A stretch of DNA of 64,000 nucleotides from an uncultured Candidatus Berkelbacteria bacterium (GTDB lineage Bacteria; Patescibacteriota; UBA1384; 2-12-FULL-50-11). Positions within the stretch are counted from its first letter, which is position 1. Each line of letters begins with the position of its first letter. The notes below the pieces were generated by a model. That model was not told the origin of the DNA, did not search any database, and worked only from the letters and a program-made list of their open reading frames with translations. Where the stretch lies: NCBI GenBank assembly GCA_903839975.1, contig CAIMEH010000013.1, positions 15,999 to 79,998 on the forward strand, written 5' to 3'. Of the stretch, positions 11,084-64,000 are shown piece after piece. A program made the translations under genes and the position numbers.

Positions 11084-12709
<1,626 letters not shown>

Positions 12710-14453: not shown

Positions 14454-14536
14454 AATCTTCTCCTTGTTTTGCTCAAGTTGAGCGTACGCAAATTATATGC
14501 CAATACGGGCAAGTGGGTCAATACGCTATAAGGCTG

Positions 14537-14911: not shown

Positions 14912-15427
14912 TTAAGCAGTTGGTTCGATTATGGGGATTTCAATGGCCAGTTTGTCGAATATTGGCTGGTCCACAACATCCTGAAAAACAACCGCGTTCG
15001 GGGTGATACTTACCAGAAAATGTCGGGGAATAATTCGTTCGTGAAACAAACTTCGAATAACGAAACGAACAATCAAGCCGGTATCGGCGTCGATTAAAAC
15101 ATCGCTAATGCGGCCGATGCGCTTACCGGACTCGGTAGTGGCGGTTACGTTAATTACCCGGCCGTAGTGGTGGTAGATATTGTCCAGATCTTTTAAGTTA
15201 GTTTTTAGGGCGGATTTATCGTGAATTACAATGGCGCGGCGATTTGAGCTGGCAATGTCTCGCCACTCCAGGCCAAAGAATTTTTTCACTACTCCGCTTT
15301 TTGCGACTTGCAGCCCGACTGCTTGGCCGATCTTGCCGTCGTACACCAGGAAATCAATAACGCCATATTCGGTACCGGAGCTATCAACAACCGGCAGCCC
15401 CTTACAATGGGTCGCTTCTATGATCAT
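14912..15427 (-). CDS. PRC-barrel domain protein (tandem PRC barrels); start placed at the internal Met (MIIEATHCKGLPVV)
   Basis: Two ~80-aa PRC-barrel-like repeats with G-x-V-x-D patterns. The 31-aa N-terminal extension in the track ORF looks spurious. Confidence 0.5.
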   Translation of the reverse strand: MIIEATHCKGLPVVDSSGTEYGVIDFLVYDGKIGQAVGLQVAKSGVVKKFFGLEWRDIASSNRRAIVIHDKSALKTNLKDLDNIYHHYGRVINVTATTESGKRIGRISDVLIDADTGLIVRFVIRSLFHERIIPRHFLVSITPNAVVFQDVVDQPIFDKLAIEIPIIEPTA

Positions 15428-15654
15428 GCTATTACAGTACCAAATTCCCCTAGTTATCTCTACGTTAGAGTCTACTAACAATCCTTTCAGATAGCTGCAA
15501 ACTGTAAATTTTGGCTGCAAAACTCGAGTTGCTCGTCAAGGTAGGCCAGCTATCCCTCCTCGCAAACTCGAATTTTTCGCACAAAATTTCCTTGTTTTCG
15601 CATCAAGAAAAGATTATTACTAGGCTCTTAAAAATGCTATGGTAGTCTGGAGGG

Positions 15655-49147: not shown

Positions 49148-52056
49148 TGGCTGAAAATAATACCGAAAAACGCAAATCGTTGTTTGATCTTGAAGAAGAA
49201 ACTTTAAAGTTCTGGCAGGAGAACAAGATCTTTGAAAAGTCCTTGGAGAAAAACGATAAGTCTAATATTTTCTCGTTCTACGATGGCCCACCATTTATTA
49301 CCGGTATGCCGCACTACGGCACGCTCTTGCCGTCGATTGCTAAGGATATAATTCCACGTTATCAAACCATGAAAGGCAAGTACGTCCGCCGAGTTTGGGG
49401 TTGGGACGTCCATGGGTTGCCGGCCGAAAATCAAGTCGAGAAACAGCTCGGGCTAAAATCCAAAAAAGACATCGAAAAGATGGGCATCGACAAGTTTATT
49501 GCCGCCTGCCGCGAGTACGTTAAAACTGGTTCGGAACAGTGGAATTGGTACGTTGACCACATCGGCCGTTGGGTTGATATGGAGCACTCTTATCGCACCG
49601 ACAATATCGAGTTTATGGAATCAGTCATGTGGATCTTCAAAGAACTCTACGACAAAGATTTAATTTATCAGGGTCGTCGAGTTTCGCTTTACTGCCCGCG
49701 TTGCGCCACCCCGCTCTCGAAGTTCGAGATTACGATGGACGACGAGAACTATAAAGACGTGGAAGACCCAGCCGTTACTGTCGCTTTCAAGCTGAAAGAT
49801 CAGGATGCTTACGTTTTGGCCTGGACAACTACCCCTTGGACGCTGCCATCCAACTTGGCCTTGGCTGTCGATGAGAACGCCGAGTATGTTAAGGTTTACG
49901 ACGCCAAAAACAAGCGCTACTACATCTTGGCTCACGAGGCGATGGTGCGCTACGACGAGATGGACTGGGAGATTAAAGAACATATTCCGGGCAAAGATTT
50001 AGTGGGCAAAGAGTACGAGCCGCTATTCAACTTCTTAGCCACCAACCCAGAGAAGGATTACCATATCTACGCTGCTAAGTTCGTAACGATGAACGAGGGT
50101 ACCGGCGTCATTCATATCGCTCCAGCGTTTGGCGAAGAAGATTTTAACTTCGGTCAAGAAGTTGGTTTGTCGATTCTGGAAACCTTGAACGACGAAGGCA
50201 AGTTTATCGAGCAGGTTAAACCTTGGGCGGGCGCTTATTATAAATCCGCCGATCCCGAGATTACCGCCGATTTAGAGAAACGTCAGCTTTTAATTAAAAA
50301 TGAGACTATTACGCACTCTTTTCCGCACTGCTACCGTTGCGGCACGCCGTTAATCTACAAGTCACAGATGCAGTGGTATCTAAAGATCTCCGAGCTCAAG
50401 AGCAAACTGCTCAGCGAGAACGACGCCATTAACTGGGTACCAGAGCATTTTGGCAAGGGTCGCTTTAACTACAATATTGAGAACGCACCCGACTGGTCGA
50501 TCTCCCGAACCCGTTACTGGGGTTCGCCGATTCCGGTTTGGGTCACCGAAAACGGCGAAAAAGTTGTAGTTGGCTCGATTAAGGAGTTGGAAGAACTTTC
50601 GGGCGAAAAAATTACCGACTTACACCGACCGAAGATCGATGACGTTGTTCTAACTCTAAAAGACGGACGCAAAGCCCATCGCGTCAAAGAAGTGTTGGAC
50701 TGCTGGTTCGAATCCGGGGCCATGCCGTACGCCCAGTTCCATTATCCATTCGAAAATAAAGAAGAGTTCGAAGCCAGTTACCCGACCGACTTTATCGTTG
50801 AATACACCGGTCAGCTCCGCGGTTGGTTCTACTACCTGCACGTCTTGGGTAACGCTTTAATGGGCAAGAACTCGTTCAAAAACGTTGTCGTTACTGGTGT
50901 GTTAATGGGCAACGACGGCCGCAAAATGAGCAAGAGCTACAATAATTTCCCAGACCCACGCCAAACACTAGAGAAGTACGGGGCAGAGTCGCTACGTCTA
51001 TTTTTCATGAACTCGAACGTCATGGCCGGCGGCGATTTGGCGGTTACCGAGGATGATATCCGCGAGCAGTCGCGCTTGCTGGGAATCCTGCACAACAGCT
51101 TTAAATACTTCCAGACCTACGCCGAGGTTCACAAATTCAAACCGATTGATGATCCCGAAAATCCTACAGCTGGTCGTGAGAACCCAACTTTAATCGATCG
51201 CTGGATATTACTGCGTTTGGAAGAGTTTATTATCGAGTACTCCGAGGCGCTCGACGCCTTCGATTTCGTGAAGTCCTCTCGCGCCATACGGCCGTTTATT
51301 GAGGACCTTTCCACGTGGTACATCAGACGCAGCCGTGATCGTTTCGTAGCGGGCGATTCTGCCGCCTTAGAGACGTTGCACGATGTCCTGACCAGCTTCG
51401 CTAAAGCGGTGGCACCGACGTTGCCGTTTAGCGCCGAATTAATCTACCGCTCGCTTACCGGCAAGACCAAAGAGAACTCAGTTCACCTACAAGAATACCC
51501 AGCCCTGCAGCATGATATCGTTAGCGAAAACAGCAATGTTTTAGCCAGGATGAGCGATATCCGCGAGATCGCTTCGATCGCCCACAAGATTCGGGCCGAG
51601 GCCGGTATCTCGCTTCGTCAGCCACTGGAATCGCTTTCAATCGTCGGTTTCAAAGAGCTGGAAACCGAAGAAGAGTTCTTGGAAATTCTGAAAGACGAAC
51701 TCAATATCTCCACCATTACCTTCGATGAGGTTGGCGGCAACTTTAAGTGCGTCGAGGCCAACGGCAAAAAAGTTTGCCTAAATCTAACTATCAACCAAGC
51801 CCTACAAGAAGAAGGTCAGTACCGTGAACTGCTTAGAGCCCTGCAAGATGCTCGTAAAAAAGCCGGCCTGAACGTCGGTGAACGGGTAACGGCGTGGTTC
51901 CATACCGACGAACAGAAAATTTCGGCCTTAATCGAAAAACGCCGCGAAGACATTCAAACAGCTCTGTCGTTTGAGGCGTTAATTCAAAAAGGCGCCCTAT
52001 CAGGAGCCGTGGAAACTATGAGCGGCGATCTGATGGTCGAATTTAAAAAGAACTAA
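49147..52056 (+). CDS. ileS: isoleucyl-tRNA synthetase
   Basis: Class I. GWDVHGLP (IleRS-type GWDCHGLP), the CP1 editing region and KMSKS (RKMSKSYNN); 969 aa. Confidence 0.85.
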   Translation: MAENNTEKRKSLFDLEEETLKFWQENKIFEKSLEKNDKSNIFSFYDGPPFITGMPHYGTLLPSIAKDIIPRYQTMKGKYVRRVWGWDVHGLPAENQVEKQLGLKSKKDIEKMGIDKFIAACREYVKTGSEQWNWYVDHIGRWVDMEHSYRTDNIEFMESVMWIFKELYDKDLIYQGRRVSLYCPRCATPLSKFEITMDDENYKDVEDPAVTVAFKLKDQDAYVLAWTTTPWTLPSNLALAVDENAEYVKVYDAKNKRYYILAHEAMVRYDEMDWEIKEHIPGKDLVGKEYEPLFNFLATNPEKDYHIYAAKFVTMNEGTGVIHIAPAFGEEDFNFGQEVGLSILETLNDEGKFIEQVKPWAGAYYKSADPEITADLEKRQLLIKNETITHSFPHCYRCGTPLIYKSQMQWYLKISELKSKLLSENDAINWVPEHFGKGRFNYNIENAPDWSISRTRYWGSPIPVWVTENGEKVVVGSIKELEELSGEKITDLHRPKIDDVVLTLKDGRKAHRVKEVLDCWFESGAMPYAQFHYPFENKEEFEASYPTDFIVEYTGQLRGWFYYLHVLGNALMGKNSFKNVVVTGVLMGNDGRKMSKSYNNFPDPRQTLEKYGAESLRLFFMNSNVMAGGDLAVTEDDIREQSRLLGILHNSFKYFQTYAEVHKFKPIDDPENPTAGRENPTLIDRWILLRLEEFIIEYSEALDAFDFVKSSRAIRPFIEDLSTWYIRRSRDRFVAGDSAALETLHDVLTSFAKAVAPTLPFSAELIYRSLTGKTKENSVHLQEYPALQHDIVSENSNVLARMSDIREIASIAHKIRAEAGISLRQPLESLSIVGFKELETEEEFLEILKDELNISTITFDEVGGNFKCVEANGKKVCLNLTINQALQEEGQYRELLRALQDARKKAGLNVGERVTAWFHTDEQKISALIEKRREDIQTALSFEALIQKGALSGAVETMSGDLMVEFKKN

Positions 52057-52299
52057 GGCTTGACGACCGAAATTACTGAGCCTACGCTTATGTCTGGAAA
52101 CGCGTAATGTACCTTTCGACGAAAGGTCGTGACTAGTGTTTTGGGACTCATCTCAAGAGAGGTGACAACTATAAGGAATTTCATTTCGTAGTGAACCGGA
52201 CAACGATAAATCCTCGGGGGCGCAGCTACTAGCGCCCCTTTAACTTTGTAATAAAAATTCTGCCCGCGGAAATAATCCGCGGGCATTGTGTTTTTTCGC

Positions 52300-54102
52300 T
52301 TACTTAACCGAAGATTTCGGTGTATGTGTTGGCGAAAGCGATCGAGCCTTGGCAGCAGGCTGGATCATAGTTATCGGGTTGTTGATGGGTACGATAGAAC
52401 CGTAGTGACGTGTTAAAGTCACCGATTTTACCGCCTGTCTTTCGCTGTTTACGGCTGCACGGACGATTACTTTTGTGGTGCCGCACTGGTATTGCGGGGT
52501 AAAGTTCCATATAGGATCTTTGTTTGAATTTAACCACAAATGAACATCCTTTGACCAAGTTCCGTAAGGCGCTAATACAAGCAAACTATCAAGCATGTAA
52601 AAGTGATACGGAAAGAATTGACCGTCGGGTAAACCAGGGTTTAACCAACTTGTGTCGAGCGAGTTGCCGTACTGGTCGTAGTCAGCCATTGTCAGGTCGT
52701 GAACTGGTAGGTAACTGCCGGTGTTGTTCTTCAGAATTATGGTGTAGTTCCAACCATCACTGGCAGCATCGACGTTATTGCTTGCTAGACTGACGTCGAT
52801 GGCCGCATCTGAGTGGTTTTTAACGAAATTTACCACTTCGGCCATCACGTTTTTGTCGGTTTTGATCGAGCAGTGTCCGGCACCTTGAACGATGTGTCGT
52901 TCGATAGCACCGGAAGTAATCTCTTCCATAACCACGTTTTTGGCCAGGGCGCTGTCTTGGGGGACAACGCTGTCCTTGCTACCAGCAAAGAAGTAGTAAT
53001 TAACGGCAACTCGTTGGTTGTAGCCGTTGTTCAGGTCGGGAAGGTTGAGGGCATTTAGGTAGCTGCTGCCAGTTGCCATTTCCGTGACGCAACCCTCTTG
53101 TTCGTACTGTGGCGTCGGACAGATACTGAACGGGTCGTTCAAAAGCTGATCCATATCACGTTTCAAGTTTGTTAATGGATCGGCGATTGTCGCGCCGGTA
53201 TTGGGAGTGCCGTAGGCAATCACATCGCTTATCTTAGTTGGGTCAATCTTGTGTTCCACAAGATCTCGGCCGATAAGACCACCACGCGAGTGCAGGAAAA
53301 GCATAATGCTTTTGTCTAGGGCGCTAATCGAATTCAGTTGTTGTTGGAAGTAGCTAACCGCCGTTGCACCACCATCGAGGTAGTTATACGGCATGCCGTA
53401 GGTAAGATACGCCCCGAAGTTCAAGTGGAGATAGTTGGCCAAGTCGGTAATAGAACCGACGTTGTCAAGAATGCCGTGTCCGACAAAGATTCTTTTTCCG
53501 GCTGTGTTAGACGAGTTGTTTAACAGTAGCGGTGTTGGCGAATCGGTATCGGGAACATTGTCTATAAACGAAGCTACCAACCAGTTCCAAGTGTTGGCGA
53601 TTGTCTGGCCGACGCTGCGATCTTGTAACGATCGGCCGGAAGCGGTGCTTAGCTGGAAAGGCGTAGCGCCTGTGCCAGTGTTAGTGGTGCTCCAGTGCCA
53701 GATCGTCGGATCATTGGCGTCGCGGTAGGCGACGATTTTTATCTCGTTGCTGTTACCACCGGCGATTGAGATATTAATCGGTTGCTGATTGGCAGCCACC
53801 GATTTTAGCTCAGTTACGTTAAAGATTTTGAGCTTAGTGTTGGCTGGCGGGTACAAGAAACCCGTTGAGTTGAATAGGTCGTTCGTTAAGGTCGTACCAG
53901 TTGGGAAGGTTGCCGTAGAAGCAGTGATTGTTTCGTTGCCGTAAACTTGGTTGACGGCCTGATTTGGGGCAACGTTTAGAACGTCAGTTTTAATTGGTTT
54001 GGTTGGGTCTGGGGGTACGGATGGGCCTGAGCCTCCACCACCACAACTTACGAGAGAGATGCAGGCAGCAATGCCAGCAAAAAGTAACGAGATTCGTTTC
54101 AT
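52300..54102 (-). CDS. lipoprotein with alpha/beta-hydrolase (lipase/esterase-like) core
   Basis: Lipobox LVSC after the signal peptide. The LHSRGG nucleophile elbow (GxSxG variant) and a GAGHCS region are present. Confidence 0.55.
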   Translation of the reverse strand: MKRISLLFAGIAACISLVSCGGGGSGPSVPPDPTKPIKTDVLNVAPNQAVNQVYGNETITASTATFPTGTTLTNDLFNSTGFLYPPANTKLKIFNVTELKSVAANQQPINISIAGGNSNEIKIVAYRDANDPTIWHWSTTNTGTGATPFQLSTASGRSLQDRSVGQTIANTWNWLVASFIDNVPDTDSPTPLLLNNSSNTAGKRIFVGHGILDNVGSITDLANYLHLNFGAYLTYGMPYNYLDGGATAVSYFQQQLNSISALDKSIMLFLHSRGGLIGRDLVEHKIDPTKISDVIAYGTPNTGATIADPLTNLKRDMDQLLNDPFSICPTPQYEQEGCVTEMATGSSYLNALNLPDLNNGYNQRVAVNYYFFAGSKDSVVPQDSALAKNVVMEEITSGAIERHIVQGAGHCSIKTDKNVMAEVVNFVKNHSDAAIDVSLASNNVDAASDGWNYTIILKNNTGSYLPVHDLTMADYDQYGNSLDTSWLNPGLPDGQFFPYHFYMLDSLLVLAPYGTWSKDVHLWLNSNKDPIWNFTPQYQCGTTKVIVRAAVNSERQAVKSVTLTRHYGSIVPINNPITMIQPAAKARSLSPTHTPKSSVK

Positions 54103-54247
54103 ATCCTTCCTCCAATATCTTTTCCAGGTTGGAAAAGTTCGTCTGCAAAAGCAGTTGGCTGAATTTTATCTGAAAACGGCTGTTTTTTCAAGGAAAGAGA
54201 AAGGGCCCGACGTTTTTATACGTCGGGCCATGAGTGTCCAGTTTGGA

Positions 54248-54916
54248 CTAACGGATCTTGAGGTCGCTTGCCTTTTGGCTTTTGACGTAAGGGTCAGTGG
54301 CAACAATTAAGGCATTGGAGGCCGCTTTGGCGATTGGGCCGGTCTTAGCGCCGCCCGAGAACCAGTTAAAGCCGAAGGTTAGCCAACCGGCTGCCACCAT
54401 CCAATCGGGTACTTTTGTTTGGTTATTTGCTTCGATGGTGCAGACTGGGGTTGCAAGATCGCCAGCGTTAACATCGACCATAACGAGGTTAAGGTTCGCC
54501 TTGGTCTTTGTCTCAGTTCCTCGAAGCGTTACAACCGAGTAGGCGTGAAAGTTGTAGTTGGCGTAGACGATCATGTCGACGTCTAGCTTCTTCCCTATTT
54601 GCAGCAAATCCTTGGGATCGGCTGTCATGTTCGGGTTGTCGCTCTGTTTATAGAAGTCGGGATTTACGTCCTTGAGCGCGGTTTGGACTTCTGCACTGTC
54701 AACCATCTTGTAGTCTTTCAAAATGAAAGCCAAGGTGTCGTCGAAAGCTTGAGGTGGCTCCTTGTGTCCAGTGTAAACCTTGCCATCCTCGAACATTCGA
54801 ACGATAACTGCGCAGTATTTAAGGCGCGGTTTTTCCTTGTTCTCTTGGGCGAACGTGGTAACCGATAGTAAGGCGGCCATAGCCGCAATGACGATTGTTC
54901 TAGCGATTTTATTCAC
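54248..54916 (-). CDS. secreted hypothetical protein; GTG start after RBS aggagg
   Basis: Signal peptide VNKIARTIVIAAMAALLSVTTFA. Confidence 0.5.
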   Translation of the reverse strand: MNKIARTIVIAAMAALLSVTTFAQENKEKPRLKYCAVIVRMFEDGKVYTGHKEPPQAFDDTLAFILKDYKMVDSAEVQTALKDVNPDFYKQSDNPNMTADPKDLLQIGKKLDVDMIVYANYNFHAYSVVTLRGTETKTKANLNLVMVDVNAGDLATPVCTIEANNQTKVPDWMVAAGWLTFGFNWFSGGAKTGPIAKAASNALIVATDPYVKSQKASDLKIR

Positions 54917-55037
54917 TCCGATCCTCCTGAATGTTGTGCCTATTAAGGCGTGCAATAACAGGCATATTGTACAGGTAATTGCTGTTTTACTCAATGGTTT
55001 TTGGTTTTGTTTTAATGGTCAGCTACAATAACCAGAG

Positions 55038-55685
55038 ATGCTTATCGCCTTTTTTCAAATTATCGCCACCTCTGTTGTTTGGGCGGTGTTAAAAATTTTT
55101 ACTCGTTTCGAGATACACGGCACGGAAAATTTGAAAGAAGTTAGTCGGCCATTTGTGGTTGTTGCAAATCATGAAAGCGTGCTGGATCCGCCGCTGATTG
55201 GGGTGATGTTGCTTCATCGACCACAGCTTTTTCCGATTCGTTTTATGACCAAAGATCTTTTGATCTATATCCCAATTTTCGGGCAGATTATTTGGTTATT
55301 GGGCGCTTTCAGGGCTCGCAAGAAGAAGGGTATTGGACGGTCGTTATTGGCGCCGGTTAAAATTCTTGAAGGTAGAAATGGCGTGATGATGTTCCCAGAA
55401 GCGCATATTATTCACGAACGGGCACATTTGGGCGAGGGTCGTCGTGGTGCGGCAATTTTGGCATTAACAACTAAGGCTCAGCTACTGCCTGTTTCTTTGC
55501 ATACTCCGGCTAATTTGAACCTGTTTACCTTTATTTTCACCAGGCCAAAAATCGTTGTTCGTGTCGGTACGCCGTATTATTTAAATAACCTGGATTACCC
55601 TGACTTCTCCGACGAAAACACCTTTGCCGCCACCAAAGTAATTATGCAAAAAATCGCCGACTTATATTTCCAGCACAAGTACTAA
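55038..55685 (+). CDS. plsC: 1-acyl-sn-glycerol-3-phosphate acyltransferase
   Basis: HxxxxD acyltransferase motif (VVANHESVLDPP) and the FPEAHII motif. Confidence 0.8.
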   Translation: MLIAFFQIIATSVVWAVLKIFTRFEIHGTENLKEVSRPFVVVANHESVLDPPLIGVMLLHRPQLFPIRFMTKDLLIYIPIFGQIIWLLGAFRARKKKGIGRSLLAPVKILEGRNGVMMFPEAHIIHERAHLGEGRRGAAILALTTKAQLLPVSLHTPANLNLFTFIFTRPKIVVRVGTPYYLNNLDYPDFSDENTFAATKVIMQKIADLYFQHKY

Positions 55686-55709
55686 GTTGATAATTGGTAC
55701 TATCAGGTA

Positions 55710-55738
55710 TTGACAGAGTATTTTTATAGTTGTATATT
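55710..55738 (+). promoter_or_regulatory. consensus-like sigma70 promoter TTGACA-17-TATATT driving precursor A and its maturase
   Basis: ttgacagagtatttttatagttgtatatt. Confidence 0.65.
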
Positions 55739-55785
55739 TTTCGTGATTGTTGAGGGGTCCGTACCCTAACATGGAGGTAAGTGAC

Positions 55786-55932
55786 ATGTCACTCGAAGAG
55801 TTGAAAAAGCTCTCGATCTCCACTTGTAATCTCGCGGTCAATTCGGTGCTAAGCAACGAATGTGACGGGGGTGACGACGATTGCGTCGACGGTCAGGACT
55901 CTGACGACGACTGCACAACGGCTGGCGGCTAG
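55786..55932 (+). CDS. RiPP precursor-like peptide A (48 aa) with Asp/Cys-rich core
   Basis: RBS ggaggt sits 7 nt before the ATG. Sequence: MSLEELKKLSISTCNLAVNSVLSNECDGGDDDCVDGQDSDDDCTTAGG. It lies immediately upstream of an rSAM/SPASM gene. Confidence 0.65.
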   Translation: MSLEELKKLSISTCNLAVNSVLSNECDGGDDDCVDGQDSDDDCTTAGG

Positions 55933-55953
55933 TTCGCAGGTCGGCATACTTCT

Positions 55954-55981
55954 GTGGGCGCGTACTTTTGTTCGCGCCCAC
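55954..55981 (+). terminator. attenuator-type GC hairpin between precursor A and the maturase (gtgggcgcg-N10-cgcgcccac followed by tattcttt)
   Basis: 9-bp GC stem with a weak T tract, suggesting partial termination. Confidence 0.55.
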
Positions 55982-55999
55982 TATTCTTTGGAGAAAAAT

Positions 56000-57223
56000 A
56001 TGGATCATAAAGCATATAAGCTAATCGTTGACGGTAGGGCGATAGTTTTCCTTCCAACACTAGGAAAATGTTTCGAAGTTTCTCCAGAGAAACTCGATGA
56101 ACTGCCCGACTACATAACCGCAGACGACTCTGTGAAACCTGTCGTCAAGAAGAAATACACCAGCGCCACCCTTGTACTAACCGATGATTGCAACTTGGCG
56201 TGTTCGTACTGCTATGAATTCGGGAAGCCAAGGCGCGACCCAATAACGATGAGTGTGGAGACGATTGAGAAAGCGATAAAAAGTCTAGTCGGGCGTGCCG
56301 TAAGTGAAAAAACTTCTGGCGTCAGACTCTACTTTTTTGGCGGCGAACCAACTTTGCGTCTCGATGAAATTATTTACGCCAAGCAACTCCTGGACAAGAA
56401 ATGCGGAGAGCTTGGCTTAAAAACCAGGTACTGCATTACTACTAATTGTTGCATGTCGGACGAAGCTGCTAATTGGGTCATGGAAAACATTGATTCAATT
56501 GGCATATCTTTCGACGGCAACAAGAGGATACAGGACAGGCAAAGAGATATGAGCTTTGATCAAGCTTTTGATCGAGCGAAACAATTCTTCTCTGTCTGTG
56601 GCAGTAAGAAAGTGAGCATTAGAGTGACAGTTTCGCTATGGAGTGCTCGTAAAATGGAAGAGATTGTCAGCTTCTTTGCGGCGAGCTTTCCCGGAGTAAA
56701 AATCTATCTTGAACCATTATTCAAGATAGGTAGAGGCAAAACAACTTCGCTTGAGATGCCAAATCCAGACAGATTCTTCAACGGATGTCTGGCTTGCTAT
56801 AAACTTGCCAAGACACTTGGGGTTGATGTTGTAACTAGCATTGGCAAACCGAGGAACGACACACCGTACTTCTGCGGTGCGCATGGTGGAGGACAAGTCT
56901 TCGCGCCTAATGGCGAAGTTCTTACCTGTCCAAGAATGTCATTGAGTTGTGAGCCCGGAAGAGACTTCTTCGTTTGCGGAGAAATTACAAATGATGGCAT
57001 TGTCTTTGATCGGGCAAAAACAGAATCGTTGGCGAGTCTACTAGACTACTCAAAGATACCTAAGTGTGCCGATTGCTTTGCAAGATATGCCTGTAGGGGC
57101 GACTGTCCGGCCAATAAAGCAGTGATTAACCAAGCTACCTTCTTCCATGAGCCTAGCTATAGGTGCGAAGCAATTAAGCGTTTCGTGTCAAAACTTTTGC
57201 TCTTGGAACTCGATTCAAGCTAA
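56000..57223 (+). CDS. radical SAM / SPASM-domain peptide maturase A
   Basis: CxxxCxxC (CNLACSYC) rSAM cluster. The C-terminal SPASM Cys pattern is CGAHGGG...CP...CGE...CADCFARYACRGDCP. Start placed at MDHKAYK after RBS ggagaaaaat. Confidence 0.85.
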   Translation: MDHKAYKLIVDGRAIVFLPTLGKCFEVSPEKLDELPDYITADDSVKPVVKKKYTSATLVLTDDCNLACSYCYEFGKPRRDPITMSVETIEKAIKSLVGRAVSEKTSGVRLYFFGGEPTLRLDEIIYAKQLLDKKCGELGLKTRYCITTNCCMSDEAANWVMENIDSIGISFDGNKRIQDRQRDMSFDQAFDRAKQFFSVCGSKKVSIRVTVSLWSARKMEEIVSFFAASFPGVKIYLEPLFKIGRGKTTSLEMPNPDRFFNGCLACYKLAKTLGVDVVTSIGKPRNDTPYFCGAHGGGQVFAPNGEVLTCPRMSLSCEPGRDFFVCGEITNDGIVFDRAKTESLASLLDYSKIPKCADCFARYACRGDCPANKAVINQATFFHEPSYRCEAIKRFVSKLLLLELDSS

Positions 57224-58144
57224 TTCACCCGGTGTTTCGCACTCTGCGACGCACCGGGCTATTTTTTTAACAAAATCCGCATCAATTGATTGGTTAGAAA
57301 TAATATATTCTTGCGCTAATGGCATTCCAATTTTGCCAGATTCGTAAATTATTTTGTTCAGTCTGTTTCTTTCTGATTTGCTCTCGGACCTTTCTTCGGA
57401 ATCCGTTATACCAAAATACTTTTCTGCAAAAATGCCACGTGGGGCAAACAGATTAACAATTGCTTCGCGAGTTAGTTGTGTTTCTTGGTTGTAAAAATCT
57501 TTCTCAACTGACTGACTTAAAAATTCTCTATATCGACTTGTTTCAAACACACTATGAATAATCTCGTGCAATACTAGTAAAATTATCCGTCGGACTAGTA
57601 TATCGCTCTCAATATTAAATACGGATAAGCCAATAAATTCGCGACTTAAAGATTTACCAAAATCGGCGCCGTATCTTGCTGGTTTGGAGTTTATTGCCAG
57701 CAACTCGATAGTAACTGGCTTGGAAATGTCTGGATTGAAGTTGCCGTAAAGTACAGACAGATCTTTAAGCGCCAGCTCAATCTCCTTTGAGTATTTTTTT
57801 ACTCCTTGATCCAAAGCTTCCCTAAAACTTTCTAATCTCTTTTGGTCGTCGGCCCAAGTTTCTTCAACAAATACTTGTAACTCTTCGAAATGTTTTGCAA
57901 TCGAAGCTGGAAAGATAGATGTGTCGCTTTCTGACAATGATTCTAGTAAGTCTGCTTTCTTGACGGTATCGAGAGATTTGAAATAACTTTTGAAATTAGA
58001 GTAATATTCAGTATCTTTCCAAGTTTGTTGCCTTATCTCTTCTGCAATCTCTAGGAATTTTTTTGAGCCGCCTTCGCTCCCGCTAGCTAGTAGTAGTGAA
58101 TAATAAACGTTAAATGCTTTATTGACCTCAAATTTTATCTCCAT
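57215..58144 (-). CDS. HExxH-motif putative zinc metallopeptidase (candidate leader peptidase); convergent with maturase A
   Basis: LVLHEIIHSVFE. The last ~15 codons overlap the rSAM-A terminator hairpin. Confidence 0.5.
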   Translation of the reverse strand: MEIKFEVNKAFNVYYSLLLASGSEGGSKKFLEIAEEIRQQTWKDTEYYSNFKSYFKSLDTVKKADLLESLSESDTSIFPASIAKHFEELQVFVEETWADDQKRLESFREALDQGVKKYSKEIELALKDLSVLYGNFNPDISKPVTIELLAINSKPARYGADFGKSLSREFIGLSVFNIESDILVRRIILLVLHEIIHSVFETSRYREFLSQSVEKDFYNQETQLTREAIVNLFAPRGIFAEKYFGITDSEERSESKSERNRLNKIIYESGKIGMPLAQEYIISNQSIDADFVKKIARCVAECETPGELA

Positions 58145-58337
58145 TTACTTGCAGAATACGCCTTGAGCAAGATAGATAAAAGAGGTGCTTTTTTGACGCG
58201 GAGGGGGAGTAAATAAATTGGGATGTGTTTTGGCTCATTGCATTTATTCTGGCCACTCATTGTAGCTATAAATTTTCGTAAAAATGTGCTACTATGACCG
58301 CATCCTGCCCATCAAGGGGCACCTTAAGGTGATCGAC

Positions 58338-58472
58338 ATGAAAACAAAGGCACGAGTTCGTGTTCCTTCCTGCTCTCAGCTCAAAAAGCTGAGGGGCAGA
58401 ATTAAGGGCTCAGCGTCTGCGGCCAATTGCGGTTCAAGCCAGTGTGCTTGTTCCTGTGCCTGCAGAAACTGA
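58338..58472 (+). CDS. RiPP precursor-like peptide B (44 aa) with Cys-rich C-terminal core
   Basis: RBS aaggtga precedes the ATG. Sequence: MKTKARVRVPSCSQLKKLRGRIKGSASAANCGSSQCACSCACRN. Confidence 0.55.
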   Translation: MKTKARVRVPSCSQLKKLRGRIKGSASAANCGSSQCACSCACRN

Positions 58473-58483
58473 ACATCGTCAAC

Positions 58484-58522
58484 GGGGTGGGAGTAGTAAT
58501 ACTTTCCGCCCCACTATTTTTT
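58484..58522 (+). terminator. attenuator/terminator hairpin between precursor B and the maturase (ggggtgg...ccgcccc followed by actatttttt)
   Basis: The same architecture and the same cccactatt tail as the hairpin after precursor A. Confidence 0.55.
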
Positions 58523-58539
58523 GATATTCAAGGAGCAAA

Positions 58540-59502
58540 ATGATGGGAAGCGAATTAAAGCTTTCGAGATTCGTTCATGCATTCGATATTGAAGATTCCC
58601 TGGCGCTCTTCCACTCATTTCGCGTGGATACTGTGTTTTTGCCGAAGGAGTCTCGCGACTTGTTGGATAGGCTAAGACTAGGAGTTTCTCCTACCGAGGC
58701 GAGGAAAATGTTTGGCACGAAGTCGACTAAAACTCTGACTGATAAATATTTTCTGGTCGACTCGTCATACGACGAAATTGCTGAGTTACAGAAATGCGTT
58801 CGTAAGGATGTTTCGGGAACGTACTTCCATACGATGTACCTTCTTCTTGCAGAACCGTGCAACCTCGACTGCGGGTATTGCTTCTTTCAGGACGAGATGC
58901 CGGTTAGAAAAACAGGCGACCGTATCATGAAGGAGTCGACGGCCAAAAACGCACTGGATTTATTCAGTACATGGGCTGAGAAGAAACAACCCGCGACAAT
59001 TATCCTCTATGGAGGCGACCCGTTGATAAACATGAGGACGTTAAAGTTTGCTATCTCCTACACTGACCAATTGGTAAGCGAAGGTAAATTGCACGCTGAC
59101 ACGGTTGTCTCGATTGTCTGCAACGGCACTCTAATCAACGAGGACTTTGTTGAGTTCCTGAAGAGCTTCGGCCGAAGAGTGTCTCTAGGGATATCTCTCG
59201 ACGGCCCGCGGCACATTCATGACTTTTGGCGAAAAGACAAGAAGAAGCGGGGCTCGTATGACCGAGCGATTGCAGGGTATACACTTGCGAAGGAGGGAGG
59301 CTTGAGCCCGTCTATATCTTGCACGCTTGCGCCCAACAATCTCCCTGAGATTGACGCAATCACTGACTGGCTAATTGAAATGGAGCCGGCTGGAATGAGT
59401 TTCAATCTACTGGCCGATACATCCAAATTGCACATGGATGCTAAATACGCCGAAGACGCAACTAACGCTATGATCAGGGCGTTTAAGCGTTTAAGCGTTT
59501 AA
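58540..59502 (+). CDS. radical SAM maturase B, rSAM core. It is terminated by a stop created within a (gcgtttaa)x3 tandem repeat and continues in the SPASM ORF 59508-59921.
   Basis: CNLDCGYCFF CxxxCxxC motif. Confidence 0.8.
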   Translation: MMGSELKLSRFVHAFDIEDSLALFHSFRVDTVFLPKESRDLLDRLRLGVSPTEARKMFGTKSTKTLTDKYFLVDSSYDEIAELQKCVRKDVSGTYFHTMYLLLAEPCNLDCGYCFFQDEMPVRKTGDRIMKESTAKNALDLFSTWAEKKQPATIILYGGDPLINMRTLKFAISYTDQLVSEGKLHADTVVSIVCNGTLINEDFVEFLKSFGRRVSLGISLDGPRHIHDFWRKDKKKRGSYDRAIAGYTLAKEGGLSPSISCTLAPNNLPEIDAITDWLIEMEPAGMSFNLLADTSKLHMDAKYAEDATNAMIRAFKRLSV

Positions 59503-59507
59503 GACAG

Positions 59508-59921
59508 GTGGGTATCTATGAGGACCGAATGATGCGGAAGGTGGACTCATTCACCGACGGCAGGAGATTCTACAAGGACTGTGCTGGCTACGGGGAACAA
59601 GTTGTAATCGCGCCCGATGGAGATATCGGACCATGCCATGCCCATACGGCAACTCGTAAATACTTCCGGGCAAACGTTAACACGCCTGGAGAGTTCGATC
59701 CTAGGAACGATTCAACTTTCGTTGAATGGAGTCAAAGGTCGCCCTTTACAATGCCCGAGTGTATTGGCTGCGAGGCTCTCGGCGTATGTGGTGGCGGTTG
59801 TGCCGCTAATGCCGAGAGAAGATCGGGAAGTATGCGTGGACTAGACGACTTGTTTTGTATTCACGCTAAGCAGGTCTTGGCCTGGATGATAACCGACCTG
59901 TACCTCGGTATGAATAGCTAG
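59508..59921 (+). CDS. SPASM-domain C-terminal fragment of maturase B (separate ORF in this assembly)
   Basis: CIGCEALGVCGGGCAANAE SPASM Cys cluster. Its frame is restored to the rSAM core if one 8-bp repeat unit is removed. Confidence 0.7.
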   Translation: MGIYEDRMMRKVDSFTDGRRFYKDCAGYGEQVVIAPDGDIGPCHAHTATRKYFRANVNTPGEFDPRNDSTFVEWSQRSPFTMPECIGCEALGVCGGGCAANAERRSGSMRGLDDLFCIHAKQVLAWMITDLYLGMNS

Positions 59922-59948
59922 CTCGCTAACAGCGAAACTAACAATGGC

Positions 59949-60635
59949 CTATCCCAGCAGGGATAGGCCTCTTTCTATAAATTCGTTAATATCTTTAATT
60001 GCAATATCGGTAAGTTCCTTTTGAGATTTCACCAACTCAGGATAGTTATGGTCGGTATAAGCACCGGTTTTGTCCCAAGGCCATAAGCTTTTTAATACAG
60101 GGTCTAATCCAGTAATTGCAAATGCATATATTTCTGCAAGTTTCCAAGTGATTTGGTCTGGTACGTCTGGATAACCCGAGCGCATTTTAGAAAAAAATTG
60201 GGTAATTACTAATTCGTGAGCTGTAATTCGTCGTTGTTCTCTGAAATCTTTATTCCATATACGCGCAACTTTATTTCCGCCCCAATTACTTATTCCTGGA
60301 TGGAATAAACTGACAACACATTCATAATTCTTATGAGCGAGCGGAAATTTTGTTAGTTCGGCAAGGCGCTTGAAAAATTTTTCATCAATTTCATCCCAAC
60401 CTTTTTGGTATTCAGATATTACTTTGTCTAGTTTGTCACCAGTTTCTGAATATCTTTTGTCGACAATCTTTTCAGAAAGTTTTTTATCACCTCTCGCAAT
60501 CCTTTTTGCATCTCCCGTATTAATATTCATAACTTGAGCATATTCAAGAATACCTTCTTCGCTTCTGCCCTGAAGCATTATAGAAATCATCTCGGTGTCG
60601 TATTCTTTGTCTTTAATAAATTTAAGTAGTGACAT
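59949..60635 (-). CDS. hypothetical protein (228 aa), convergent with maturase B
   Basis: ORF that shares the upstream motif ttttgacgcggagggggag with the HExxH gene. Confidence 0.45.
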   Translation of the reverse strand: MSLLKFIKDKEYDTEMISIMLQGRSEEGILEYAQVMNINTGDAKRIARGDKKLSEKIVDKRYSETGDKLDKVISEYQKGWDEIDEKFFKRLAELTKFPLAHKNYECVVSLFHPGISNWGGNKVARIWNKDFREQRRITAHELVITQFFSKMRSGYPDVPDQITWKLAEIYAFAITGLDPVLKSLWPWDKTGAYTDHNYPELVKSQKELTDIAIKDINEFIERGLSLLG

Positions 60636-60720
60636 ACTGCGATTATATACTCTCGATTAGCCAATTACACAATTTTGACGCGGAGGGGGAGGTTGGGTAA
60701 TAGAAATTAAACCGCCGCCC

Positions 60721-61008
60721 CTATTGGGGGCGGCGTTCATGATTGAGCGTCCAGTAGTACTGGAAGACGGCAGCAGCAGCAATGAATACTGCTGGCGTGT
60801 CAGATATCTTTAAGAACGTGTCTGGCTTTGTCCAGCCATACAGCGCCCAAAAAAGAATATTAAAGAATACGAGTAGGATGATATAGGGCGATACGTCCCT
60901 AACAGATCCGGTCTTCCGAACTCTTAACATCTGGAGCGGCAAACCGACCCAAGTAGTTATGATGGAAAAACTAACGGCGAAGAATCCAAAAACTGTGCTT
61001 GGTATCAA
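60721..61008 (-). CDS. SemiSWEET/PQ-loop family small transporter (95 aa, 3 TM)
   Basis: PQ-loop motif GLPLQML. Confidence 0.6.
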   Translation of the reverse strand: MIPSTVFGFFAVSFSIITTWVGLPLQMLRVRKTGSVRDVSPYIILLVFFNILFWALYGWTKPDTFLKISDTPAVFIAAAAVFQYYWTLNHERRPQ

Positions 61009-61079
61009 CTAACCCTCCATACAAATCTTGTGAACTATACCATTCAACAGGTTAAAAGTCAAGTAGTATGGTCTAATTT

Positions 61080-61108
61080 TTGACGGTCTAAGTATTTGTC
61101 TGTAAATT
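61080..61108 (+). promoter_or_regulatory. sigma70-like promoter TTGACG-17-TAAATT for the GNAT-MT operon
   Basis: Read directly from the sequence, 10 nt before the ATG. Confidence 0.5.
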
Positions 61109-61118
61109 TTACCTATAC

Positions 61119-61664
61119 ATGATTTCTTTTTTGCGTGCCAAGCCGAAAGTTGAAAAAATTCTCGTCAAAGACGACCTTTTTTCGAAGGTAGCAGAGATGC
61201 GCTATAAGATTTACTGCGAAGAACTTGGGTTTCTAGAGAAGAAAAAATACCCAGAGAAGAGAGAGATGGACGAGTACGATGGTCAGTCGATTCACGTGGT
61301 AGTTAAGGTCGGTAACCGCATGGCAGGTTACGCCAGAGTTATTCTTCCCAATGGCAAGAAGTTGCCTATATTTGAAAACTTTAAAGTTCCGGAAGAGAAA
61401 GATCCTCATCATGCCTGTGAAATATCTCGTTTTATGATTTCCAAAGCTTATAGACATAAAGATGAAACAAGACGTGAAATATTTAAGCTTCTAGCCGAAG
61501 AAATTTTGAAGATAGTTGAAGAGCAAGAAGTAAAAGTTGTTTATGCAGTTGTTGAGGAGTGGCTTCTGAAAAGTCTTCAAAAGAGAGGGTATGAATTTGA
61601 AAAAATTGGAGAAGGACACTTCCACATGGGTGCGGTGACTTACCCAATTAAGCTCGTGCTATGA
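61119..61664 (+). CDS. GNAT-fold N-acyltransferase of the LuxI/FeeM (autoinducer-synthase-like, N-acyl amino acid synthase) family
   Basis: MRYKIYCEELGF, EYDGQSIHVVVKVGNRMAGYARV and EISRFMISKAYR align with the LuxI/FeeM conserved blocks. Confidence 0.65.
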   Translation: MISFLRAKPKVEKILVKDDLFSKVAEMRYKIYCEELGFLEKKKYPEKREMDEYDGQSIHVVVKVGNRMAGYARVILPNGKKLPIFENFKVPEEKDPHHACEISRFMISKAYRHKDETRREIFKLLAEEILKIVEEQEVKVVYAVVEEWLLKSLQKRGYEFEKIGEGHFHMGAVTYPIKLVL

Positions 61665-62689
61665 GCTCTCTGGCCCAATTTTTCACGAGCTGGGCAAGTA
61701 CGATTCAGTCAAGCTACGGTGTAAATCCGTGGATATTTATTGTTATTTACCTCGCTACCCTACCTTTTACTTGGTGGTTATTTTTTCTGATAGTTTTCTC
61801 GCTAAAAGATAAAAAATACTCCAAAGCCGGTTATTTTATTGTGCTCGAGCTAATTTTACTTGCGCTACCATACCTGTATCTTCTGATCTATATGCAAAAT
61901 ATTCACTGGTTGATAAGGGTGGCGGTAGTTATTCTAATATTCTGGTCATTTGTTTCTTTAAGAAAAAGGCTGCTACGCAAACAAAACGACTGGGATGATA
62001 TTGCTAAAGACTATGATTCAATCTCGAATATCTCAAAGGCTCATAAAGAAAAGATTGGCTATGTGTCAGAACTGGCGACCAAAAATAGTCCGAAAACAAT
62101 TCTAGATTTAGGTTGTGGCAGCGGCGTGATAGAAAAGAAGCTAGATGAGATGGGGTATAGAGGCGAGGTTACTTCTCTCGATTCTTCGGAAGAGATGTTG
62201 AAGATTGCCAAGAAGCACAGCTATAAAAACTTCAAACCCAATTTTATCTACCAGGACTTGAATGCTCAGCTACCCTTCAGGGAAGAGAAATTTGATTCAA
62301 TTATTATGGTCAACGTTCTGTTCTGCCTAAGGGACCAGAAGTCCTTTTTAGAGAGTGTGAATAAATTGCTAACAACGGATGGCAGTTTTGTATTGGTAAA
62401 TCCAAAGCCGATACCAACAACTGCCAACTTTTTCTCGGAACATTTCAAAGGTCTAAACCTGGTGGGGAAAATAAGGGAAATAGGAAGAGTAATTATTAAC
62501 ATTCCTGGATTAATCCATCTATTAGTATTCCAGAACAAATTAGATTCACAGGAAAAAAATAAAGATTCTTACGACTACAAAGATAAAGACGAGCTTGCAA
62601 CCCTCCTTAAAGGAGCTGGTTTGCTGGTGGAAAAAGTGGAGGAGATACAGGCTAACCAGAACTGGCTTTTCTACTGTAAAAAAGCCTAA
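61661..62689 (+). CDS. membrane-anchored class I SAM-dependent methyltransferase
   Basis: N-terminal 3-4 TM helices. SAM-binding motif I ILDLGCGSGV, with post-I and motif II also present. Confidence 0.75.
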   Translation: MSSLAQFFTSWASTIQSSYGVNPWIFIVIYLATLPFTWWLFFLIVFSLKDKKYSKAGYFIVLELILLALPYLYLLIYMQNIHWLIRVAVVILIFWSFVSLRKRLLRKQNDWDDIAKDYDSISNISKAHKEKIGYVSELATKNSPKTILDLGCGSGVIEKKLDEMGYRGEVTSLDSSEEMLKIAKKHSYKNFKPNFIYQDLNAQLPFREEKFDSIIMVNVLFCLRDQKSFLESVNKLLTTDGSFVLVNPKPIPTTANFFSEHFKGLNLVGKIREIGRVIINIPGLIHLLVFQNKLDSQEKNKDSYDYKDKDELATLLKGAGLLVEKVEEIQANQNWLFYCKKA

Positions 62690-62855
62690 GCAGGGCAGGG
62701 CTCGCCCCAAAAAGATAACAGCAAGACCCTGGGTCATTCCTAGTGTGGGTTTCCCCATGTTACTTTTAAAACTCGTGTGCACTATAGTGCAGTTGCGAGT
62801 GTTTTGGGATATAATATGCCCAGTTTGATCCTTTACAGAGACGGAACGATTAACT

Positions 62856-64000
62856 ATGGAAACTGCCACGAGAATATATGAATTTTCTGTCGGAGAAAGG
62901 CAATACACTTTTGACGGCGACGGCCTAAGGCTGTTTGAGGGCTCCTGTCTTCCAACGTCAGATTCTTTGCCCAACCAACCTAGTAATTTAATTGAAACGA
63001 GACCTGCCTTTCTGAGGAATCTCGCTCTTAATTTAACTAATAACTGTAACTTTTGCTGTGGCTACTGTTATGCCAAGCAGGGTAACTACGACATACCAGG
63101 TCTAGTAATGACGCTTGACACTGCCAAGCACGGCATTGATCTTCTTTGCGAATCAGTTAGAAAGAATGATAGCGAGAAGGCAACTATTGCCTTGTTTGGT
63201 GGCGAGCCACTCCTCGAGTTTGAGCTAATTAAAGAAATAGTTGCTTACACGAAAAGGAATATGCCTACTTCAACGTCAATCCAATACCTGATTACGACCA
63301 ACGGCACTCTCATCGACAAAGAAGTTGCTGAGTTCATGCAGGAGAATGGTTTTATCGTCACTGTCAGTATAGATGGGGACGAGGAGACTCACGACGCTTA
63401 CCGCCGCTACAAAAAAATTGGTACAGGAACCTACAACGATGTTGTTGCTGCTGCTAAACTTCTGCAAGGTAAGGTCCCCCTAACAGGTAGGCTTACTGTT
63501 GCCGAAAGAACGCCCGATGTTTGCGCTTCGGTTTTGGCGGTTAAGGCCGCCGGATTTGATCGCATTACCTACGCTTTCGACTACAGAATGAGCGAAGAAG
63601 CCTTCCAGGCTAGCCTAATCTCAGTCGAAAAATTACTTGTTGCATACGAAGATTCTATTAAGGCTGGAGACTATTACGATATTACCAACGTTACGGAGCC
63701 AATCACTTCAATTGTCCTAAAAAGGAAGAAGCGGTCGCACTGTAACGCTGGCCTTTCGTATTTGTCACTGTCAGCCGATGGGGCGATACATCGTTGCCCG
63801 AGATTTACAGGCATAAAACAGTTCTCTCTCGGCAAGATTCAAGAGAATAACCTACTTAGGGTCGAAAGTTCGATCCAAAGCTACCAACGCTCTCTCGGAA
63901 GAAATGCCGGGGACAGAGTTACCGGTTGCTACGACTGCGCTTTCGTCCATCTGTGTGGCGGCCTTTGCTCCCATCAATCGTTTACTGAATCCGGCTCAGA
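62856..64000 (+). CDS. radical SAM / SPASM-domain protein C; 3' end beyond the window
   Basis: CNFCCGYC rSAM motif. Downstream Cys clusters CNAGLSYL...CPRF...CYDCAFVHLCGGLCS. The frame is open to the window end. Confidence 0.8.
   Translation, partial: METATRIYEFSVGERQYTFDGDGLRLFEGSCLPTSDSLPNQPSNLIETRPAFLRNLALNLTNNCNFCCGYCYAKQGNYDIPGLVMTLDTAKHGIDLLCESVRKNDSEKATIALFGGEPLLEFELIKEIVAYTKRNMPTSTSIQYLITTNGTLIDKEVAEFMQENGFIVTVSIDGDEETHDAYRRYKKIGTGTYNDVVAAAKLLQGKVPLTGRLTVAERTPDVCASVLAVKAAGFDRITYAFDYRMSEEAFQASLISVEKLLVAYEDSIKAGDYYDITNVTEPITSIVLKRKKRSHCNAGLSYLSLSADGAIHRCPRFTGIKQFSLGKIQENNLLRVESSIQSYQRSLGRNAGDRVTGCYDCAFVHLCGGLCSHQSFTESGS

Follow-up and report, generated by a model that had tools for sequence, protein, structure and literature searches.

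The 64,000-nucleotide stretch of contig CAIMEH010000013.1 analyzed here (the window) contains, between 55.7 and 64 kb, three genes for radical S-adenosylmethionine (radical-SAM)/SPASM maturases, together with small open reading frames (ORFs) for Cys-rich peptides. We conclude, with a probability of about 0.7, that this region is an island of three independent modules (A, B, and C) of the type that makes ribosomally synthesized peptides with post-translational modifications (RiPPs), each with a maturase of its own family and a dedicated Cys-rich precursor, in a Patescibacteria-like chromosome. The analysis was computational and used an ORF map, translations, domain scans, the loci of homologues, and predicted structures. 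The ORF map, translations, and domain scans recovered every element that an initial annotation of this DNA had listed, each in its place (Table 1). That annotation had combined the elements into one multi-maturase cluster, which we do not follow: each maturase is of a different family, and relatives have module A or module B on its own.

Maturases, precursors, and partner proteins

All three maturases match PF04055 and contain a CxxxCxxC motif, at residue 64 in maturases A and C and at residue 107 in maturase B, and a complete seven-Cys SPASM motif, which spans residues 292–389, 345–437, and 296–405 of maturases A, B, and C, respectively. Each of their top NCBIfam matches is to a peptide-maturase model (PapB, SCIFF, nif11, QhpD, and FibroRumin), which bears out the initial reading of the genes as RiPP-type peptide-maturase modules and not as anSME or cofactor enzymes. 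Maturase A scores best with PapB (105.6 bits), ahead of SCIFF (88.2), QhpD (82), anSME (69.2), and TIGR04115 (59.8). The best model for maturase B is the FibroRumin model TIGR04136 (270.5 bits), followed by PapB (150.6), SCIFF (114.1), QhpD (104.2), and anSME (95.1), and for maturase C it is PapB (216.7 bits), followed by QhpD (187.5), SCIFF (147.9), and anSME (114.6). The cut-offs of these families are 340 bits for PapB (NF047865), 425 for SCIFF (TIGR03974), 400 for TIGR04136, 350 for TIGR04115, 50 for TIGR04117, 349 for anSME (TIGR03942), and 453 for QhpD (TIGR03906). All three maturases fall short of the thresholds for the ranthipeptide (PapB) and SCIFF families, and the initial likening of the island to ranthipeptide clusters is not supported at this level; the Cys plus Asp/Glu composition of the substrates is consistent with the ranthipeptide class, which is defined by a thioether from Cys sulfur to a non-α carbon of the partner residue. 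The precursors match no Pfam or NCBIfam model, even at lax thresholds; a SCIFF precursor would have six Cys in roughly 45 residues.

Maturase B covers nearly the whole FibroRumin model, residues 8–452 aligning with model positions 1–454 of 458, but the whole Patescibacteria-type B clade stays below the 400-bit cut-off. Since its Patescibacteria-type relatives score 233–345 bits against TIGR04136, while a true member that is 34% identical to maturase B (P0034) scores 760 bits, maturase B is part of a clade sister to that family. No papers were found in a literature search for 'FibroRumin'.

Precursor A has a leader that begins with MSLEEL and a Cys/Asp-rich core, ECDGGDDDCVDGQDSDDDCTTAGG, and the 67-nt intergenic region between precursor A and maturase A has a predicted folding energy of -22.7 kcal/mol. 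The site 5' of precursor A, a consensus promoter in the initial annotation, is promoter-like and the best-scoring one within 55000–64000, although promoter-like sites overall, 14 against 14.6 expected from shuffles, are not enriched. Homologues of maturase A are rare; a word-indexed search of 5.8 billion proteins gave five, with 35–40% identity. Wherever the DNA beside them is readable (L006/L007, L089, and L090), a Cys/Asp-rich peptide adjoins the maturase, and the peptide of L089 has the leader start MS-x-EEL in common with precursor A. A lack of precursor conservation in related genomes had been named at the outset as a ground for giving up the RiPP assignment; precursor A is conserved beside homologous maturases in other genomes, and so is precursor B (in L002 and L088). 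More distant A-like maturases from JGI metagenomes (25–30% identity) adjoin peptides with xxDC repeats in L091, L096, L099, L100, L108, and L135. The core of precursor A in the window (55855–55932) has the form CDGGDDD...TTAGG, with three widely spaced Cys only; the other A-type cores are CxxDC repeats. An extreme case of the Cys/Asp repeat is a 96-amino-acid (aa) ORF beside the maturase of L096 (4664–4954), which has more than 15 consecutive C-x-x-D-C units. Module A is intact in the window and recurs as a set in distant relatives.

What is the function of the HExxH protein encoded next to maturase A? Its gene stands convergent behind the maturase A homologues of L006/L007 and L090 and is present also in L135. 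A convergent 329-aa gene of matching size, which may be a homologue, lies behind the maturase A homologue of the P0242 contig. An exhaustive HMMER search of 1.84 billion proteins gave only 33 representatives of this small family. In an alignment of 30 members, with 32% mean column identity, H193, E194, H197, E227, and Y280 are invariant. The AlphaFold2 (AF2) model, with a predicted local distance difference test (pLDDT) of 88.4, has a three-stranded sheet, an HExxH helix, and a Glu-bearing helix. The protein is predicted to have a zincin-like fold and belongs to a small unannotated family. It matches no Pfam or NCBIfam model, even at lax thresholds, a profile search of PDB sequences with the family found nothing, ChlH included, and a Foldseek search with the model gave no significant match. 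Thus, no family in Pfam, NCBIfam, or the PDB links it by sequence to the gluzincins (M1, M4, and M61) or to the oxygenases ChlH and PflC, and the other domains of M1 enzymes are missing from it. The curated HExxH-hydroxylase model (IPR026337, ChlH/PflC type) and related NCBIfam models are matched by none of the 30 family members; the sporadic matches among these are to the Zn proteases FtsH, SprT, and HtpX. The invariant HExxH...E...Y pattern is that of gluzincin hydrolases (M1, thermolysin-type), which counts against a hydroxylase. Because of this pattern, the lack of a match to the curated hydroxylase model, and a host that is likely anaerobic, we suggest that the HExxH protein most likely removes the leader of precursor A. 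The plain label of peptidase that it had received is not supported as it stood, an α-ketoglutarate-dependent hydroxylase being a possible alternative (PMC12636437): HExxH proteins encoded beside radical-SAM RiPP enzymes were recently found to be Fe/α-ketoglutarate hydroxylases of Asp and His and, in one case, also peptidases (PMC12636437).

Precursor B ends in CACSCACRN. In L002, where the relative of maturase B is about 75–76% identical, a 43-aa precursor ORF, MKTKICIRVPTCSQLKRLKGRIKGAASAANCGSGQCACACACR, is found at the same place. Over 44 codons, the two precursors show 17 synonymous and 10 non-synonymous differences, with all core Cys kept. The ribosome-binding site and the downstream hairpin of module B are conserved in L002, and the upstream intergenic DNA is not alignable. 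Since synonymous differences outnumber non-synonymous ones and the core Cys are kept beside upstream DNA that cannot be aligned, the comparison indicates that precursor B is under purifying selection. In L088, from a Berkelbacteria metagenome-assembled genome (MAG), the maturase is 49% identical, and the ORF upstream of it ends in ...YECACSCACRSK, with the CACSCACR core recurring. The 67-nt region between precursor B and maturase B has a predicted folding energy of -21.4 kcal/mol. The 228-aa protein is 71% identical in L002 and 48% identical in L088, in the same convergent position and orientation. It matches no Pfam or NCBIfam model, even at lax thresholds, and hhalign found no relation between its family and the HExxH family. 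Module B thus recurs in two other Patescibacteria-type contigs.

The gene for maturase B is split into two ORFs, as the initial annotation had it. When one copy of an 8-bp unit that is present three times is deleted, the ORFs fuse into one of 457 aa that contains ...AFKRLRQVGIYEDR..., in agreement with the relatives, and aligns end to end with intact ones of 443–456 aa. Neither L002 nor L088 has a repeat at the orthologous site. The same triple repeat is present in L001, a 1.75-kb ENA contig otherwise identical to the window, which may not be independent of the window's reads. We suggest that through a slippage duplication maturase B lost its activity or, at best, became two pieces. In this genome, module B probably no longer functions or ceased to do so very recently; the event appears recent because precursor B and the 228-aa protein remain undamaged. 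We considered programmed frameshifting at this repeat of 8 bp and rejected it, as there is no evidence for it and the relatives have no repeat there.

In the AF2 model of the repaired maturase B (pLDDT 93.9), the N-terminal domain comprises strands at residues 12–17, 20–25, and 30–35 and helices at residues 36–46, 51–58, and 60–68, with pLDDT above 90. The model aligns over 475–481 columns with CteB and TigE, which contain a RiPP recognition element (RRE), versus about 375 columns, the core only, with anSME. On the strength of this model, maturase B is predicted to carry an RRE-like N-terminal domain (β3-α3). CteB, the SCIFF maturase, and TigE are its best full-length structural matches, N-terminal RRE included, with TM-scores of about 0.73–0.77, but they have only 17–20% sequence identity to it. 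The search for RREs that had been recommended was thus positive for maturase B, in the structure model only; Pfam PqqD detected no RRE in the N-terminal region of any of the maturases.

A small ORF lies directly 3' of the maturase C homologue in all three contexts, L003, L004 (Senegalia massiliensis), and L005. These C-type peptides have 36–43 aa, a single Cys, the leader motif (I/D)FGL, and the ending C-E-G-G-x-E-G-x-x-G, and no NCBIfam model matches them. They are followed by a C39-like peptidase of about 200–220 aa in L003 and L005 and by an ABC exporter in L004. A search of the window with four motif patterns for a CEGG-type or further Cys-rich precursor gave precursor B only, plus a chance match at about 9119. 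Since the relatives encode the C-type precursor downstream of the maturase, the precursor of maturase C, if present, should lie beyond about 64166, outside the window. The genome-collection scan with the full maturase C (P0119) found no relative. The initial annotation had given this gene a promoter and a palindrome of its own. The palindrome, about 65 nt 5' of the maturase C start, is indeed perfect over 14 bp, but the promoter scan flagged no site there; a TATAAT hexamer is present about 20 nt 3' of the palindrome. On the 5' side of the maturase C homologue in L003 (4757–6791), two genes that match the Pfam family 23S_rRNA_IVP, the second one bAvd as well, alternate with genes resembling those of type IV pilins.

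Table 1. Features of the island in the window and putative precursors at homologous loci (positions within each locus)
Locus	Feature	Position	Strand	Remarks
Window	Promoter-like site TTGACA-17-TATATT	55710–55738	+	5' of precursor A; 11/12 matches
Window	Precursor A, 48 aa, MSLEELKKLSISTCNLAVNSVLSNECDGGDDDCVDGQDSDDDCTTAGG	55786–55932	+	GGAGGT 7 nt 5' of ATG; alternative ATG at 55771
Window	Hairpin, precursor A/maturase A gap	55954–55981	+	12-nt arms, 92% complementary; T-rich tract after
Window	Radical-SAM/SPASM maturase A, 407 aa	56000–57223	+	PF04055, CxxxCxxC, seven-Cys SPASM motif
Window	HExxH protein, 309 aa, convergent to maturase A	57215–58144	-	Conserved partner; zincin-like predicted fold
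Window	Precursor B, 44 aa, MKTKARVRVPSCSQLKKLRGRIKGSASAANCGSSQCACSCACRN	58338–58472	+	Homologues 5' of maturase B homologues in L002 and L088
Window	Hairpin and T tract, precursor B/maturase B gap	58484–58514	+	Kept in L002
Window	Radical-SAM/SPASM maturase B, frameshifted; 457 aa repaired	58540–59921	+	ORFs 58540–59502 and 59508–59921
Window	8-bp unit, three copies, GTTTAAGC GTTTAAGC GTTTAAGA	59481–59504	+	Third copy is the cause of the frameshift
Window	Perfect hairpin, 10-bp arms	59946–59969	both	Between convergent maturase B and 228-aa genes; terminator-like on either strand
Window	228-aa ORF convergent to maturase B	59949–60635	-	Conserved in L002 and L088
Window	SemiSWEET transporter	60721–61008	-	PF03083, 44 bits (cut-off 23.7)
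Window	FeeM/LuxI-like GNAT (N-acyl amino acid synthase type)	61119–61664	+	PF13444, 48.9 bits; PF21926, 29.2 bits (cut-off 27)
Window	Class I SAM methyltransferase, membrane-anchored	61661–62689	+	PF13847, 72 bits; start overlaps GNAT stop by 4 nt
Window	Perfect 14-bp palindrome TGCACTATAGTGCA	62778–62791		5' of maturase C; possible operator
Window	Radical-SAM/SPASM maturase C, 381 of 436 aa inside window	62856–64000	+	Full protein P0119; gene end at about 64166
L006/L007	A-type precursor			MELELLLRSALVDVSFRGNANADCEDKCSDNCQDSDGCDGDCGGDCEDSAS
L089	A-type precursor			MSDEELDLMALGSANFGTNNHESFCGPDCGGDCGSDCSSDRDECCECSDPSY
L090	A-type precursor, cut by contig end			...SCGCEDSCGCDGDCGGDGSMPDGS
L003	C-type peptide	9285–9395		...CEGGSEGAGG
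L004	C-type peptide	7355–7486		...CEGGAEGSAG
L005	C-type peptide	4337–4447		...CEGGGEGDAG

Organization of the island and comparison with known systems

The modules share a layout, and in this sense their initial description as tandemly duplicated holds, but the three maturases are only 22–24% identical to one another. A recent tandem duplication was rejected on this ground. L002 is syntenic with the window, with identities of 53% for HisRS, 59% for IleRS, and 62% for an acyltransferase, and there the shared genes lead straight into module B, with modules A and C absent. Between the window (47915–60635) and L002 (1892–12085), module B is more conserved, at 75% for the maturase and 71% for the 228-aa protein, than HisRS and IleRS, which could reflect strong constraint or a recent transfer of the module. 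In L002, module B is followed by an aminotransferase, a seven-transmembrane histidine kinase, and a response regulator (12243–16215), and on the P0242 contig, module A stands ahead of the same aminotransferase-kinase-regulator set. Since the same downstream genes follow module B in L002 and module A in P0242, and the window has both modules with other downstream genes, the locus looks like a variable, swap-prone site that holds A, B, or both.

The radical-SAM/SPASM enzymes PapB (freyrasin) and QhpD, which make Cys-to-Asp/Glu thioethers, provide the best or second-best models for maturases A and C. Set beside the substrates of these two enzymes, Cys/Asp repeats make up the A-type cores, and the C-type ones read C-E-G-G-x-E; PapA has CxxxD repeats, in contrast to the xxDC repeats of the A-type or the single CEGG of the C-type peptides. 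The partner proteins also differ, being HExxH and C39-like proteins here, as does the short N-terminal region of maturases A and C, with only about 63 residues ahead of CxxxCxxC. The CXXX-repeat system (TIGR04114, TIGR04115, and TIGR04117, which are in silico families) resembles the A-like precursors in its Cys-x-x-(D)-Cys repeats. The L006 precursor is a weak match to TIGR04117 (20.8 bits, E = 3e-4), and precursor A of the window is no match. The CxCxCxC core of precursor B recalls the CxCxC donor run in the short core (CxCxCx4GxGxG) of the hairpin sactipeptide StsA, whose SPASM enzyme StsB is RRE-dependent (PMC10288494). Precursor B differs from StsA in having its four alternating Cys at the extreme C-terminus, with no acceptor motif such as the GxGxG run evident. 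StsB differs from maturase B in that it is MftC-like, which is outside the top matches of maturase B, and in that its RRE is a separate protein.

Proposed chemistry and alternative explanations

In the mechanism that we propose, every precursor probably has a promoter to itself, and the hairpin with its T tract probably serves as a leaky terminator, which would leave more transcript of the precursor than of the enzyme. The SPASM maturase would then bind the leader, in module B via the RRE-like domain, and cross-link Cys by 5'-deoxyadenosyl radical chemistry. Maturase A would most likely join Cys sulfur to carbons of neighboring acidic residues to give ranthipeptide-like thioethers. PapB and QhpD join Cys to Asp/Glu side-chain carbons as thioethers (PMC9413430, PMC10114670). 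Ranthipeptide-like thioethers are the best guess for modules A and C because these are the closest characterized enzymes and the cores consist of exactly those residues. By this analogy, thioether cross-linking is most likely the chemistry of the modules.

Several points weigh against this interpretation. Since all three maturases score below every curated NCBIfam cut-off, chemistry cannot be transferred to them with confidence, and SPASM enzymes also form C–C and C–O links and cyclopropanes, and epimerize. The best structural match of maturase B is TigE, which we take to be a cyclopropyl synthase and not a thioether former; the fold alone does not fix the chemistry. The N-terminal regions of maturases A and C fall below the length of a full RRE, which is a winged-helix domain of about 80–100 residues. 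The Patescibacteria-type loci showed neither an exporter nor an immunity gene. Furthermore, the split maturase B may in principle still function as two polypeptides.

A single cluster spanning 55.7–64 kb, in which the maturases would act with the GNAT, the methyltransferase, the HExxH protein, and the SemiSWEET on common precursors to give acylated or methylated thioether peptides, seems to us improbable. The genes are adjacent within 8.3 kb, acylating GNATs are known in some RiPP pathways, as cited in PMC12636437, and the core of precursor A (CDGG...AGG) is faintly similar to CEGGxEGxxG, the core of the C type, so action of maturase C on precursor A is conceivable. However, modules A and B stand apart in relatives, each keeping only its own partner protein, and the low identity of the maturases noted above also speaks against one cluster. 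When the window's GNAT and SemiSWEET were compared by tblastn with 88 loci that have A-, B-, or C-like maturases, no match was obtained, and the methyltransferase gave one weak generic match. The role of tailoring enzymes that had been ascribed to the acyltransferase and the methyltransferase thus finds no conserved link in related maturase loci, although such a role is conceivable in this one genome. In the C-family loci, a precursor is encoded downstream of the maturase, and a GNAT or methyltransferase like those of the window is lacking. The SemiSWEET gene comes with a promoter-like and a terminator-like site of its own, and between module B and the genes that follow lies the hairpin resembling a terminator on either strand. 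A second explanation, that the maturases act on proteins or cofactors, as enzymes of the anSME, QhpD, PQQ, or mycofactocin type do, and that the small ORFs are chance ORFs, is highly improbable. The anSME and QhpD scores are significant though sub-threshold, those of maturase C above all, and anSME is among the structural matches to maturase B; but the scores are far under the cut-offs of those families and under the peptide-maturase matches, and the RRE-like domain of maturase B lies outside the anSME alignment. Moreover, the protein sequences of the small ORFs are conserved beside homologous maturases across 35–76% identity, and no qhp, sulfatase, or PQQ genes are adjacent.

Other alternatives leave the three modules as described and concern the product or the partner of module A. 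It is possible, though on balance doubtful, that the products are not secreted antimicrobials but are intracellular, like SCIFF peptides, or bind metals. No exporter, immunity gene, or ABC motif was seen in the window, where the signature LSGGQ occurs in no frame, in keeping with the absence of an ABC exporter reported initially, and none was seen in L002, L088, or L006. The poly-Asp/Cys and CxCxCxC cores are dominated by metal-liganding residues, and the high conservation of the module B proteins relative to HisRS and IleRS would fit a housekeeping-like constraint. On the other hand, the ABC exporter of the Senegalia locus and the C39-like peptidases of L003 and L005 point to export for the C family, the loss of maturase B shows that module B is dispensable here, and accessory functions are typically distributed in this patchy way, at a variable locus. 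That the HExxH partner is an Fe(II)/α-ketoglutarate-dependent oxygenase that β-hydroxylates core Asp, as does ChlH, a neighbor of the radical-SAM enzyme ChlB, we consider a serious rival but rather unlikely. The core of precursor A is exceptionally Asp-rich, and enzymes of this kind, with a zincin-like fold, hydroxylate Asp and His in radical-SAM RiPPs according to PMC12636437, which cites Morishita et al. 2024. Yet the family, as described above, goes unmatched by the curated hydroxylase model, has its sporadic matches among Zn proteases, and did not recover ChlH from the PDB sequences; a step requiring O2 and α-ketoglutarate would also fit poorly into a lineage that is usually considered fermentative and anaerobic. 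More speculative, and in our opinion a long shot, is the proposal that module A represents a new RiPP family in which a previously unrecognized zincin-fold partner is obligatory and acts beyond leader cleavage, for example by Asp β-hydroxylation. Its product would be a poly-(hydroxy)aspartate/thioether peptide of an episymbiont, metal-chelating or host-directed, and the locus would be a hot spot of module swapping.

If the island consists of three independent modules, as we favor, what is their significance? Predicted radical-SAM RiPP clusters have been found by the thousand, and the logic of leader peptide, SPASM maturase, and accessory protein is well established, with no departure from it here. 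Patescibacteria genomes, however, are tiny, and three peptide-maturase modules in 8 kb are unusual and a notable investment for such a small genome. Surveys of Patescibacteria have found few or no biosynthetic clusters, and the roles of those found are unclear (PMC9765116, PMC11613949, PMC9927545). The island gives a tangible entry point to the possible interactions of such episymbionts with hosts or competitors. It defines three testable precursor-enzyme-partner sets, all outside curated families: the Cys/Asp-repeat precursor with maturase A and the unannotated HExxH zincin-like family, the CACxCACR precursor with the FibroRumin-like maturase and the 228-aa partner, and the ...CEGGxEGxxG precursor with maturase C and the C39-like peptidase.

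Host chromosome and neighboring genes

The gene content of the window is that of an ordinary chromosome, with DnaE, IleRS, GluRS, GroEL, CTP synthase, and two tRNAs. In the genome-collection scan, the best match to the GroEL, with 77% identity, came from a 'Patescibacteria group' MAG, and the next matches, at about 64%, are mostly from Saccharibacteria MAGs; one maturase B homologue carries the annotation Candidatus Berkelbacteria. The GroEL comparison backs a Patescibacteria-type affiliation at about the level of phylum and, with it, the small-genome lineage that had been proposed. From general knowledge of this group, the host would be expected to have an episymbiotic lifestyle.

The SemiSWEET match to PF03083 covers residues 6–86 of 95, a single MtN3/PQ-loop repeat, and the protein scores 28 bits against NF037968 (cut-off 80). 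Its gene has a promoter-like site of its own at 61062–61034 and a GC-rich terminator-like hairpin at 60735–60713. The GNAT scores 104.4 bits against TIGR03694 (cut-off 111.95). The methyltransferase has hydrophobic segments within residues 23–105, and a scan of JGI metagenomes found no relatives of it. The 110-bp gap between the SemiSWEET and GNAT genes has back-to-back promoter-like sites (61034–61108), TTGACT-17-TATAGT with a TG extension on the minus strand for the SemiSWEET and TTGACG-17-TAAATT on the plus strand for the GNAT. This arrangement suggests that SemiSWEET and GNAT-methyltransferase are two divergent transcription units. The SemiSWEET gene would be monocistronic and the GNAT-methyltransferase pair translationally coupled, and a link of either to the modules is without comparative support.

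On the upstream side of the island, at 52300–54994, there are two minus-strand genes for proteins of 600 and 248 aa. The 600-aa protein has a lipoprotein-like N-terminus, LVSCGGGGS, and a weak match to the DUF7379 α/β-hydrolase model, and the 248-aa protein has a hydrophobic N-terminal region. Both genes are kept in L002, at 23–25% identity, and are rearranged there relative to the acyltransferase.

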